Position numbers and translations under genes: made by a program
The notes under the pieces: model-generated
What the model saw: only the letters and a program-made list of their open reading frames with translations
The model's database searches: none
What the model was told of the DNA's origin: nothing
DNA from: an uncultured virus (IMG/VR IMGVR_UViG_3300029705_000102)
Taxonomy: Duplodnaviria > Heunggongvirae > Uroviricota > Caudoviricetes
Reading direction: 5' to 3' (one strand)
Virus record (IMG/VR): IMGVR_UViG_3300029705_000102
DNA length: 20,000 bases
Part shown: positions 4,593-17,387 of the stretch, piece by piece
How positions within the stretch are numbered: the first letter of the stretch is position 1
Layout: each line of letters opens with the position of its first letter

Positions 4593-4605
4593 TTATCGAT
4601 ATGTT
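4593..4605 (-). promoter_or_regulatory. Late-promoter-like motif AACA-N6-TAA for the protease gene
   Basis: AACATATCGATAA on the minus strand, about 10 nt upstream of the RBS. Confidence 0.7.
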
Positions 4606-4659
4606 GGCAGTTTAAGACTTTTTAGGCATTAAAAAGATATTACAAAGCCAACGATATAA

Positions 4660-5014
4660 TGAGAGATTATTTCGATTACGGGTATGTAAGCGTGTGGATA
4701 CAGGTGATCGATACTTTTATCAAAATGTATTTTGCATTTGATAAGAGGACATCTCTTATATAAGTTTATTAAGAACTCGAGAGCTTAATAAACTTTGGGA
4801 GGATATGAAAGCTGAAGAAGTATATTTCGTAAATATATAGACCCTAAACTATATATTTGCTATAGCGATATATACGTCTTTTCTAGATTTGGAGGTGATG
4901 GCCCAAATCTAGAGAAAATAATGAGATGACTAATGAATGAAATGTATGTAAGGTCCCTTTATACAGGGCCCGGCCTATAGGCTGAGTCTAAGCAGCCTAT
5001 AGGTTTTACTTTTT
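4660..5014 (+). ncRNA. Candidate structured non-coding RNA (~350 nt)
   Basis: No long ORF. Tandem hairpins at 4741-4759, 4762-4795, 4831-4858, 4882-4913 and 4952-4971; promoter-like AACG-N6-TG at 4650-4661; terminator at 4974-5014. Confidence 0.45.
4974..5014 (+). terminator. Intrinsic terminator
   Basis: CCTATAGGCTG / CAGCCTATAGG 11-bp stem followed by TTTTACTTTTT. Confidence 0.85.
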
Positions 5015-5020
5015 AAAAAT

Positions 5021-5033
5021 AACATATATTTGA
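5021..5033 (+). promoter_or_regulatory. Late-promoter-like motif AACA-N6-TG with no downstream ORF
   Basis: AACATATATTTGA directly after one terminator and about 40 nt before the next. Confidence 0.5.
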
Positions 5034-5114
5034 AGCTCGTGAGATTTTTTCTTTTCTGGTTTTATTCCTTTCACCCGTGTACTCAGTCCTAGAGTGCACG
5101 GGGCTTTTATTTTA
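5032..5114 (+). ncRNA. Candidate ~80-nt pyrimidine-rich small RNA with anti-SD tract
   Basis: Bounded by a promoter motif and a terminator (CCCGTGTACTC/GAGTGCACGGG, 5074-5102, whose G.U pair works only on +); contains TTCCTTTC (5065-5072); no ORF. Confidence 0.5.
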
Positions 5115-5123
5115 TATAATAGC

Positions 5124-5134
5124 TATATATTATA
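5124..5134 (+). promoter_or_regulatory. Possible early-type promoter motif TATATATTATA
   Basis: Upstream of the 5192 gene, which lacks the AAC[A/T]-N6-TAA motif; resembles the TATATTAC early motif of phiKZ. Seen only once. Confidence 0.35.
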
Positions 5135-5191
5135 AAAATAAGAAGTACGAAACTTCTTAATAAAAAAAAATAAATTTTGGAGGACTACGAA

Positions 5192-11168: not shown

Positions 11169-12341
11169 ATGAATAAAATAAATTATGATTTCGGTGAATT
11201 TCATAATGTGTTCGAAAGCATGCGCACGAAATCTAATGCTACTCCCGATGAATTGAAAACTCTGAAATATGAGCTTAATAGATTCTTCGATGATTCTACG
11301 TGTAAAGATGTACTTTATACAAATAATCTTGACAATATGTTTTTCGGTATCAAGATAATTCCTATGATCGATGCAGACGAAATTTATGAATATCTGGCAG
11401 ACAATGAGAAGATTCGTATTGAGAGCTACATCGTAGAGATCGATTCCAAACTTCTTAATCCTATTATTGATCTTAATAAGTTTGAGCTTACTGCCATTCT
11501 CCTCGAAGAGGTTGCTAAGATGGTTGGCGACTCTACTCCTATGGAAAATGCTCGCAATGCTCTTACACTCTATCTCTCTTCTAATAGAACTCATATTAAG
11601 ATTTCTCAGTCTGTTCATTATAAGGAACTTCTTGCTTATGGCTTGAAAGACTATTTGTCGAAGTGTACCTCGCTATTCTATAAAGATGATATTACCGATG
11701 TTAATAGTGATGAATTTGCGATCAGTTATTGTCTCGTAGACCATCTGATTTCAGGATATAACAAGATCAAGGGTGATAATCTCAAACTATATCAGGATAG
11801 CGAAATCAGTAAGTTTATTGTATTTAGCTGGGCTTTGAGCTTGTATAATAATATTAAAATTCATAGAGTTGGTGCTCTTAAGACATTGGCTAGATCTAAG
11901 TCTCTTACTGGTTCTAGACTTGAAAAGATGGAAATAGATAACGTTATTCGTAGAATTCAGAGAATTGATGATAGCGTTGTTCTGGAAGCTGCTGAAACGA
12001 CGAGTGGCATCCGCCTTAAGATTAAGGAAAAACTTAAGAAGGCTCGTTTGAATAATCTTCGTACTATTGACAGCACTTTTTATGAGCTGTCTATGCAGGT
12101 AAGAAATGTAGAAGATGAGCATGATGCTCTCTATCTCATGAGACAGATTAACAACTGTATTTCTATTATCGATGAGTACAAGAATCTTCAAGACTGTGAT
12201 GAGTATGAGCAAAATAAGTGGAAAGAAGCATATGATAAGTTCGTACAGCTTCGTGACAAACTTTCCAGTACTGTCGTATATAAGAATAAACACTACGGAA
12301 TTTTCGTAAATTACCCGGATATTGTAGAGAATCGTTATTAA
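11169..12341 (+). CDS. Putative virion structural protein (390 aa)
   Basis: GGAGG at 11154-11158 favours ATG 11169; follows the capsid gene; a VVLE|AA motif precedes a helical C-terminal domain. Function inferred from context. Confidence 0.55.
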   Translation: MNKINYDFGEFHNVFESMRTKSNATPDELKTLKYELNRFFDDSTCKDVLYTNNLDNMFFGIKIIPMIDADEIYEYLADNEKIRIESYIVEIDSKLLNPIIDLNKFELTAILLEEVAKMVGDSTPMENARNALTLYLSSNRTHIKISQSVHYKELLAYGLKDYLSKCTSLFYKDDITDVNSDEFAISYCLVDHLISGYNKIKGDNLKLYQDSEISKFIVFSWALSLYNNIKIHRVGALKTLARSKSLTGSRLEKMEIDNVIRRIQRIDDSVVLEAAETTSGIRLKIKEKLKKARLNNLRTIDSTFYELSMQVRNVEDEHDALYLMRQINNCISIIDEYKNLQDCDEYEQNKWKEAYDKFVQLRDKLSSTVVYKNKHYGIFVNYPDIVENRY

Positions 12342-12352
12342 CAATAAAGTAA
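12340..12352 (+). promoter_or_regulatory. Late-promoter-like motif AACA-N6-TAA overlapping a stop codon, no downstream ORF
   Basis: AACAATAAAGTAA. Confidence 0.5.
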
Positions 12353-12492
12353 AAGTTACTATCTCCCTGCCGTGATGGAACTTTGCCGTAAACCGCGTGT
12401 TTGTGTTTTCATGTTGTTGTTCGATTTTCTCCTCCGTGTAAGTTTATATTTAAAATACCAGTAGAGGCATAGCCTCTACTGGTATGATTTTT
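12351..12492 (+). ncRNA. Candidate ~140-nt small RNA with anti-start-codon and anti-SD tracts
   Basis: Promoter motif, then GTGTTTTCAT (12403-12412) and TTTTCTCCTCC (12425-12435), then terminator 12455-12485. Confidence 0.5.
12455..12485. terminator. Bidirectional terminator
   Basis: ATACCAGTAGAGGC/GCCTCTACTGGTAT 14-bp stem between convergent units. Confidence 0.9.
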
Positions 12493-15624: not shown

Positions 15625-15647
15625 ATTTATAAAAAGGAGAACGGCAT

Positions 15648-17387
15648 ATGAAAACACTTATTATGAACAACGTAATCCCTAAAGAAAAACTGAGAGAAAT
15701 TCAGGAAAATACTCTTAACGAGCTAGCTGACATTCTCTCTAACTCTTTTGGTCCTAATGGATCTAATGCGTGTATTAAGAAAGAAAATGCTCTTTCTAGA
15801 TACAGTAAAGATGGCCATACTATTATTGGCTCTCTTCATTATAATGGCATCATTGAGCAGTCTATCAAGGACGATATCGAATCTATTACTCGTCATATTG
15901 TAAAGACTGTTGGAGATGGCACAACTTCTGCAGTTATTCTTTCATCTCTTATTTTTAAGTGCATCAAAGATGTAGAAGATTCTGGTTCTTATAAACCTGT
16001 CGAAATCGTTACAGCTCTTGAAAAGGTTGTTTCTGACCTTAAGAAGAAAATCAAATCCACTGCCAGAGAAATTACTGACAAGGATATTTATGATATTACA
16101 ATGATTTCTACAAACGGTAATGTAGATATTGCAAATATGCTTGTCGATATCTATAATGAGTTTGGAAAGACTGTATTTATCGATGTTAGCCCCTCTACTG
16201 GTGAAGAGATGGTGATCAAGTCCTATAACGGTATGACTCTTAATACCGGATATGACGATGCTTGTTTTGTAACTGATGCTACAAAGAATATTTCTGAAGT
16301 CGATAAGCCTGAAGTATATTTCTTTGAAGACCCTATCGATACAAGAGAAATTGGAGTATATCTTGACTCTATTATTTCTCATAACTTTATTACTCCTGCT
16401 AATGCACAGAACTGGGATGCGATTAGACCTACTGTTATCTTTGCTCCCAAGATTTCTAGAGATATGTCTAGTACAATGAATAGTCTTATTTCGACAATGG
16501 CTTCTATGCCTGTTGAAAATAGACTTCCTATTTGTATTATAACAGATCTTCATGAGACTGAACAGCTTAAAGATCTTGCAAAACTTTGTGGAGCTAAGAT
16601 GATTCATAAATATATCGATAAAGGCGTTTATGAAGCTGATGTAGCAGCCGGTAGAGCTCCCACCCCTGAAACTATTTTTAATTTTGCTGGAAGATGTGAT
16701 AAAGTTATAGCTTATTCTAGCAAGACTACATTTATCCGCCCTGCTCATATGTATAAGGAAGATGGAAGTTATAGCGAAATGTATAATAACCTCCATGCAT
16801 TCCTGAAATCTGAAATTATTCGTGAGACAGCAGATGGTGGAGATGCTAGAACTATTGGAACTTTGAAGAGAAGACTTCATTCGCTTGAGGCTAATATGGT
16901 TGAGTTGTTTGTCGGAGGCATTACTCAGGCAGATAGAGATTCTCTTAGAGATCTTGTCGAAGATGCTGTACTTAACCTTAGGTCTGCTGCTGAAAATGGA
17001 GTTGGATATGCAGCTAATATGTCGGCTGTAATTGCAATTAACTCTGTAGATATTAGTAAATACAATGATCTTGAAAGATCTATTTTTACAGCTATTGCTG
17101 AAGCATATGAGGCTCTTGTATGCAGACTCTATGAAGTGACAGAGTATGCTCGTTGTATTAAGAACGAAGGAAGCACAAATGCAGATCTTTATGCTAATAT
17201 TGTGAATAATGCTATTAAGGATGGACTTATTTATAACATTCGTGAAGAAAAGTGGTCTGATAATGTCGTTACATCTATTATGTCCGATGTAACAATTCTT
17301 GATACAGTTTCTCGTATCATTGGAATTATGGCAACTTGTAATCAGTTCATTCTTCCCACAGCAATGCATAATGTCTATATGGACTAA
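15648..17387 (+). CDS. groEL: Phage-encoded GroEL-like chaperonin (579 aa)
   Basis: SFGPNG, SKDGHT, VGDGTTSA ATP-binding loop, VGGITQ...RDLVEDAVL; no GGM tail. Confidence 0.92.
   Translation: MKTLIMNNVIPKEKLREIQENTLNELADILSNSFGPNGSNACIKKENALSRYSKDGHTIIGSLHYNGIIEQSIKDDIESITRHIVKTVGDGTTSAVILSSLIFKCIKDVEDSGSYKPVEIVTALEKVVSDLKKKIKSTAREITDKDIYDITMISTNGNVDIANMLVDIYNEFGKTVFIDVSPSTGEEMVIKSYNGMTLNTGYDDACFVTDATKNISEVDKPEVYFFEDPIDTREIGVYLDSIISHNFITPANAQNWDAIRPTVIFAPKISRDMSSTMNSLISTMASMPVENRLPICIITDLHETEQLKDLAKLCGAKMIHKYIDKGVYEADVAAGRAPTPETIFNFAGRCDKVIAYSSKTTFIRPAHMYKEDGSYSEMYNNLHAFLKSEIIRETADGGDARTIGTLKRRLHSLEANMVELFVGGITQADRDSLRDLVEDAVLNLRSAAENGVGYAANMSAVIAINSVDISKYNDLERSIFTAIAEAYEALVCRLYEVTEYARCIKNEGSTNADLYANIVNNAIKDGLIYNIREEKWSDNVVTSIMSDVTILDTVSRIIGIMATCNQFILPTAMHNVYMD

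Follow-up and report, generated by a model that had tools for sequence, protein, structure and literature searches.

What does a phage make from an interval that has a promoter at one end, a terminator at the other and no gene in between? The question is raised by positions 12340-12492 of a 20,000-nt stretch of viral DNA (the window), where an AACA-N6-TAA motif over the stop of a 390-aa gene, an ORF-free stretch and a strong terminator had led to the original prediction of a small RNA that occludes translation-initiation regions (TIRs) late in infection. All of these elements, and every string quoted with them, were located where the prediction had placed them. The window (G000:88903-108902 of a 223,865-bp virus record, GC 34.6%) encodes terminase, prohead protease, major head protein, a DHH phosphoesterase and a chaperonin. 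The whole record, G000, is estimated to be 90% complete, and the related genomes used for comparison 72-89%. Its source is an uncultured AR9-like jumbo phage with two multisubunit RNA polymerases (RNAPs): the record exceeds 200 kb, carries two RNAP beta-type genes (Rpb2_6 matches at G000:44436 and 153426) and uses the late promoter AACA-6N-TA/G. The nearest cultured phages are Listeria LPJP1, Staphylococcus SA1-like, Bacillus Goe21 and Yersinia phiR1-37, at 30-34% identity, and the virion RNAP beta is ~33% identical to Goe21. Strong use of Shine-Dalgarno (SD) sequences suggests a Bacillota host. No Hfq-like family was found in Pfam scans of 179 of the ~211 G000 proteins.

The same record holds several other features of interest. 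An interval of ~880 nt with no long ORF (G000:C1:5725-6606) has G+C above the genome by eye, many minus-strand GGA motifs and no Rfam match, and is a candidate large non-coding RNA. A group I intron match of 38.9 bits, below the cut-off of 50, lies at G000:C1:209607-210233 (L165:108-734) with a tRNA gene inside it (L165:363-444), and weak intron matches also occur at 137264 and 200397. At G000:C1:147630-151458, a 495-aa reverse transcriptase beside a 155-nt repeat pair (85% identity, one copy ending a 483-aa gene) looks like a diversity-generating retroelement. A 149-aa protein (G000:C1:81236-81685) matches Tad8, a type II Thoeris inhibitor, at E 3.5e-20. A tandem 17-nt repeat before a hairpin (G000:C1:37590-37720), in a 900-nt intergenic region, is a possible replication origin; ~300 nt of structured-looking intergenic sequence follow an early-type motif at G000:C1:83788-84124, with sub-threshold Rfam hits only; and a tRNA-like sequence at G000:C1:212742-212823 (+) has a late promoter and its own terminator.

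AACA-N6-TA is a real late promoter of the window phage. The motif AAC[AT]-N6-TA[AT] stands 10-75 nt 5' of 62 of the 211 called genes, as against 12.1±3.4 (maximum 23) in 200 mononucleotide shuffles, and the N6 spacing is far above N5 and N7 in all 10 genomes tested. A sigma-70 scan stayed at chance level (92 matches, 86.9 expected). In AR9, the last base of the late consensus AACA-6N-TA/G is the start site (PMC5312081), a rule that predicts +1 at 12351 for the unit studied here. The promoter 13-mer has only one other copy in the genome, at G000:39049; that copy, too, lies over a stop codon, and the sequence behind it has no ORF but contains pyrimidine blocks and a terminator.

At the level of sequence, the locus qualifies as a candidate sRNA gene, with its own promoter and terminator and no same-strand ORF (Table 1). 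The upstream 390-aa gene has 353 homologues and shares the terminator; no Pfam or PHROG family matched its protein. From 5' to 3', the unit consists of promoter, 5' hairpin, anti-start-codon block, exposed anti-SD seed and terminator. Read on the minus strand, these blocks amount to one SD-spacer-ATG followed by 17 codons, with an SD-to-ATG spacing of 16 nt that is above the median of 9-10. The seed has an unpaired probability of 0.94 against a mean of 0.53. The fold z-score is -4.6 with the terminator and -1.5 without it, so the terminator supplies most of the folding signal and the RNA body alone folds only modestly. The terminator pairing at 12455-12485 is the top-listed of 25 found, against 8.7 expected. 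Rfam gave no match at 12340-12492 among 10 hits at E<=5, and likewise none for the paralogous units described below.

Table 1. Features of the 12340-12492 locus and of comparable units (window positions unless G000 is named)
Feature	Position	Strand	Remarks
Conserved hypothetical gene, 390 aa	11169..12341	+	Longest form from 11136; SD favours 11169
AR9-type late promoter AACA-N6-TA	12340-12351	+	AACAATAAAGTAA begins at 12340, inside the TAA stop of the 390-aa gene; predicted start 12351 by analogy with AR9
Predicted small RNA, ~140 nt	12351..12492	+	Delimited by promoter and terminator, from sequence only
5' hairpin	12352..12384	+	Predicted by folding; spans +2 to +34, at the predicted start site
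17-codon ORF MKTQTRGLRQSSITAGR	12359..12412	-	Strong SD 16 nt away, ATG, double stop; basic peptide
Anti-start-codon block GTGTTTTCAT	12403-12412	+	Complement of ATGAAAACAC; held in a weak second hairpin
Anti-SD seed	12425-12436	+	Single-stranded; TTTTCTCCTCC at 12425-12435
Intrinsic terminator	12455..12492	+	14 pairs at 12455-12485; convergent with the 123-aa gene
Convergent gene, 123 aa	12494..12865	-	Sole possible source of minus-strand read-through over the unit
Second candidate unit in the window	5021..5112	+	AACA-N6-TG promoter 5021-5032, hairpin, unpaired TTCCTTTC anti-SD, terminator 5074-5102; no anti-ATG
Example units in G000	80663 (-), 39060 (+), 58534 (+), 195412 (-), window 5032 (+), 56851 (+)		

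The 12340 element is one member of a family of anti-TIR units. To count them blind to content, a unit was defined as a promoter followed within 300 nt by a terminator, with no called gene of at least 75 aa on either strand. The related genomes G000-G004 contain 71 such units, 28 of which hold 44 reverse-complemented SD+ATG modules, whereas 300 dinucleotide shuffles give 8.8±3.1 (maximum 18); neighbouring ATGs are counted separately in data and null alike, orthologous units are counted repeatedly, and some modules may start true short opposite-strand genes. The excess is strand-specific, with 12 modules on the sense strand of the 71 units against 7.5 in shuffles. With promoters disregarded and ATGs collapsed, G000-G004 yield 41 modules where the summed null is 14.3; the fewer segments of G006, G009, LPJP1, Goe21 and SA1 yield 6, the null being 4.5. 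A module is present in 25 of the 57 segments that have a promoter and in 8 of the 112 that have none (p=4e-8), and in 26 of 49 cases an ATG stands behind the SD at TIR distance, compared with 10.3 after shuffling. As a class, the promoter, the terminator and the presence of a reverse-complemented SD+ATG all exceed chance.

Members of the family differ in how many modules they carry. The unit at G000:C1:56851-57070 (+), with a late promoter, a ~220-nt RNA and about five tandem anti-TIR modules within one terminal closing stem, is the strongest case for a multi-target RNA; other tandem units have two or three modules, and several units have an anti-SD alone. Among 23 hand-picked units, 16 have no convergent gene able to transcribe the TIR strand, the 12340 unit being among the other seven. 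The 195412 unit has look-alikes in G001-G004, with the core shared in three and synteny seen directly only for G002. The second unit of the window sits in a long intergenic region (4593-5176) with several hairpins and two terminators (4972-5005 and 5074-5102).

Comparison of the slot behind the 390-aa gene reveals which parts of the unit are kept. Three scans gave 112 loci, representing 79 distinct sequences 3' of 390-aa homologues, most of which have a terminator within ~30 nt of the stop. In the set with at least 61% identity (six distinct sequences including the window; L001 and L007 are 100% identical to it and not independent), five of six carry an insert of 83-129 nt. An anti-SD lies 14-30 nt 5' of the terminator in all five of these close-clade inserts, and the anti-ATG is found in only two. 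TTTTCAT is kept in L006/L009 and was not found at matching spacing in L003, L037 and L039. The window and L006/L009 alone have in common a more extended block, TTTTCAT..TTGTTG..GATTT(T)CTCCTCCGT, and the late promoter, AACAATAAA(G/T)TAA. Conservation of both pairing blocks had been proposed as a check, and it holds for the exposed anti-SD seed in all five close inserts and for the extended block in two of the five. Predicted 5' stems, of unrelated sequence, recur in L008, L009, L037 and L039, and the inserts cannot be aligned beyond short blocks. A promoter stands at the stop in 6 of 10 sequences with an insert and in 2 of 58 without (p=5e-5), as scored in 68 of the 79 sequences after 11, including L039 and L027, were dropped for want of a terminator call or for a short flank. 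In a lineage at 32% identity (L027, L075 and L085), the homologous slot is occupied by ~118 nt of inserted sequence, in which there is a hairpin and TTTTACCTCCGC immediately precedes the terminator; this is apparently an independent gain.

Cultured AR9-like phages provide a precedent for such units. In Goe21 (OM728297), a promoter at 83714 (-) is followed by 23 nt containing UCCUCCU and then by a terminator (to ~83643), between two annotated genes. AR9, PBS1 and Internexus have the same stretch at 99-100% identity, and it is present in all seven AR9/PBS1-like records matched. Its AR9 counterpart (KU878088, 75478 to ~75407, -) is ~72 nt long, bounded by a terminator, has an unpaired anti-SD and occupies the gap between g090 and g091, at a distance of 77 nt from the former. 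A late start was mapped at 75478 (-) and labelled 'antisense g090', with a step height of 3757, the second highest among the rows of Table S3 part 1; the available portions of that report treat the transcript as antisense to g090 and give no function (PMC5312081). Since the start lies in the gap, a terminated RNA would not reach g090, and from the mapped start, the gap position and the terminator we infer a discrete sRNA. Much like the 12340 unit, it combines AACA-6N-TA/G, an ORF-free gap, an unpaired anti-SD and a terminator; unlike that unit, it is only ~72 nt long, has its seed at the 5' end and has no anti-AUG, and the two share no sequence homology. The AR9 unit shows that such units can be transcribed late. 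A search of cultured-phage DNA found no homologue, and a DNA search of five distant clade records returned only matches at E>0.05. Goe21 also has, at 211555 (+), a late promoter followed by a hairpin with a CCUUUC loop and a terminator-like stem; the promoter 12-mer ends at an AR9 start assigned to a tRNA, and this locus may be a tRNA leader.

The original prediction named two targets in the window, gene 201 and the chaperonin. The complementarity is there: TTTTCTCCTCC is the exact complement of 187-197, and ATGAAAACAC (15648-15657) and AGGAGAA (15635-15641) are both present at the chaperonin start. As targets, both were rejected, since with the 47-nt core of the RNA they rank 17th and 4th, respectively, among the 195 TIRs of the phage and are equalled by foreign TIRs and shuffles. 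AGGAGAA occurs 62 times on the plus strand of the genome and in 43 of 195 translation starts. Of the 195 own starts, 6 have an exact match of at least 10 nt; in four foreign phages, with 149-179 starts each, the number is 1-6. For the whole-RNA duplex, the best own TIR scores -33.8 and the chaperonin -33.6, with foreign phage TIRs at -31.6 to -32.4. The shuffled controls suggested with the prediction also went against it: for the 47-nt core, which contains 24 U and 11 G, 10 of 40 shuffles that keep both blocks reach the best own-TIR score, and in a separate module test 7 of 12 shuffles equal the best own match. What endures of the prediction is a promoter-delimited plus-strand RNA complementary to TIRs, for which motif statistics, the conserved promoter, anti-SD and architecture without a conserved peptide, the paralogous units and the AR9 precedent all argue.

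That the 12340 RNA base-pairs functionally is probable, a judgement that pools a non-self target, a self target and part of a generic-decoy role. We give about an even chance to the specific proposal that it is a late, trans-acting base-pairing sRNA blocking ribosome binding, with a target that is most likely non-self. The non-self part is inferred from pairing and from the composition of the modules. The phage's own TIRs pair no better than foreign ones, and the modules favour GAAAGG (13 of 33 modules against 94 of 846 phage TIRs, p=4e-5); AAA as second codon appears in 10 of 36 modules against 89 of 846 phage TIRs. Under this proposal, the non-virion RNAP would start at 12351 and stop at the shared terminator. 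The 5' hairpin and the terminator are computed to leave UUUUCUCCUCCG unpaired and would protect the RNA. The seed would pair with the SD of the target, and the U/G-rich tract would extend the duplex over spacer and AUG with an extra 5-7 nt looped out, so that loading of the 30S subunit would be blocked. By exclusion, the target would most likely be an mRNA of the host or of a co-resident element rather than of a phage gene. Scans for an outside target found none. In the single GTDB scan, a 25-nt module of a paralogous RNA gave one Ignavibacteriaceae match that did not extend past the pattern and is attributed to chance; plasmid searches yielded only noise at E>0.5; and viral scans brought up the loci of origin, relatives at the same slot, short ORFs and a 202-aa gene family that is unrelated. 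A two-block pattern matched two of five Bacillota records, once each.

The same RNA and mechanism could instead be aimed at the phage's own mRNAs, for example to damp early genes with AGGAGA SDs, much as in the late switch first envisaged; we regard this as unlikely. AGGAGA, which the seed matches, is present in 47 of 90 early-motif TIRs against 34 of 233 late-motif TIRs in five genomes, yet by duplex energy the 12340 RNA does not separate the early from the late class (p=0.19). The ranks of its named targets and the success of its shuffles point the same way, and the RNAs of three relatives share no high-ranking orthologous target among 64 orthogroups (best combined rank 0.07). On the side of self-targeting, a few other modules have standout own matches (17 exact nt for G003-227, -32.7 for G004-133362); a module-level count in which 9 of 38 beat all 12 shuffles is given no weight, being biased by shuffles that disrupt the ATG block. 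In the particular case of the AR9/Goe21 RNA, the 5' tract and the Goe21_01290 TIR form a 22-bp duplex that includes two G:U pairs and one bulge (-25.5, against -19.4 for the next of 236; 2 of 200 shuffles reach it). The same TIR precedes AR9 g113, which is expressed at 40 min. This single test is a lead; it shows that the best match may well be found among the phage's own genes.

A further explanation gives the insert no separate function and sees in it a 3' UTR or, next to the shared terminator, the decaying remains of a minus-strand accessory gene since lost, reduced to SD, ATG and a few codons. The region does double as the 3' UTR of the 390-aa gene, whose TAA stop supplies part of the AAC, and 58 of the 68 scored relatives have no insert; the poor alignment of the inserts and the weak folding of the body would fit as well. 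Nevertheless, we hold this to be improbable, since a stub needs neither a same-strand promoter nor a stem at +1 nor an exposed seed, and since modules associate with promoters and, at G000:56851, stand in tandem within one closing stem. A second strain, known from a single low-depth contig, points weakly in the same direction, with no change in 104 nt of RNA body against 5 in ~200 nt of the next gene (p=0.07); on that contig the terminator has three differences, all in the loop.

The minus-strand ORF had been held out from the start as the possible real feature. The plus-strand RNA would then be the cis-antisense, type I toxin-antitoxin-like partner of a small peptide expressed by read-through from the 123-aa gene, for which the strong SD, the ATG, the double stop and the convergent feeder gene (a trait of 7 of the 23 hand-picked units) provide some basis. 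The peptide is not conserved, however. The counterpart ORF in G002 encodes 46 aa rather than 17, in another frame and of unlike sequence, and in three other inserts (L003, L037 and L039) the SD is not followed by any start codon at usable spacing. Type I systems have a conserved, usually hydrophobic toxin ORF, in contrast to the basic, unconserved 17-aa peptide found here. Moreover, the minus strand has no late or early motif within the unit, the terminator lies directly before the SD, and the ORFs opposite the modules at the second conserved slot (195412) range from 5 to 53 aa and are unlike each other. A peptide gene is therefore quite improbable, and we judge the ORF a likely by-product of the anti-TIR module.

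Finally, we consider it very improbable that the RNA is a general decoy, imitating the 3' end of 16S rRNA so as to sequester strong-SD mRNAs indiscriminately, or an SD-binding protein, instead of acting on chosen targets. In many modules the sequence is ACCUCCUUU or CCUUUC, resembling the 16S tail, several units are anti-SD only and U/G richness permits wobble pairing, but ATG complements at TIR spacing are enriched, the modules are diverse, and the phage's own late genes use strong SDs and would be affected too.

Pairing with the SD is familiar from Bacillota, in which RsaE/RoxS and RNAIII use unpaired CCUCC/UCCC seeds for it, largely without Hfq. Those C-rich sRNAs are host-encoded and conserved in sequence; the 12340 RNA would pair alike and has no Rfam match. 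Among phage RNAs, c4 of P1/P7 resembles the proposed sRNA in being phage-encoded and trans-acting and in blocking translation by loop-exposed pairing around the RBS, and differs in belonging to temperate phages, in having one known phage target (ant) and in its conserved, Rfam-type structure (PMC12197685). SviR of the satellite PLE likewise acts in trans in a phage conflict, lowering translation of targets in another genome (10.1101/2022.04.08.487710), as do PreS and VpdS, trans-acting sRNAs of phage conflicts that are both described as Hfq-linked (review). Each of the three is one conserved RNA, encoded by a satellite or a temperate phage of Proteobacteria; the window clade, by contrast, would make many unrelated RNAs per genome, with swappable modules and from a phage polymerase. 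Small non-coding intergenic transcripts are reported for the dual-RNAP jumbo phages phiR1-37 (misc_4, for which host targeting was proposed; PMC4848604) and phiKZ (PMC8545117). They are non-homologous to the 12340 RNA by phage DNA search, and the available portions of both reports describe neither a validated target nor an anti-TIR module. A 2026 review states only that jumbo-phage non-coding RNAs exist and may regulate (PMC13282480). We found no description of a modular late anti-TIR family in listings of the literature or, for PMC10690425, in the main text; its lists of candidate viral RNAs could hold such RNAs.

The preferred reading, a late sRNA with a non-self target, would make the 12340 RNA one of a clade-wide set encoded behind late genes, each with one to five interchangeable anti-TIR modules. 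It is conceivable, if on balance doubtful, that the clade maintains a repertoire of late antisense RNAs that can be re-programmed. Modules would be copied from translation starts of the host, stacked in tandem and gained or lost at fixed slots, and chosen host genes (such as defence, envelope or receptor genes) would be silenced with no protein effector. Phage sRNAs of established mechanism come mostly from temperate phages and satellites. The idea is testable in AR9, a phage in culture on Bacillus subtilis 168, whose counterpart of this RNA has both a mapped start and a predicted target. If true, it would give lytic jumbo phages a sequence-readable mechanism for selective translational control, in which each module points to its target and which could reveal the host genes that need silencing and help to assign hosts.
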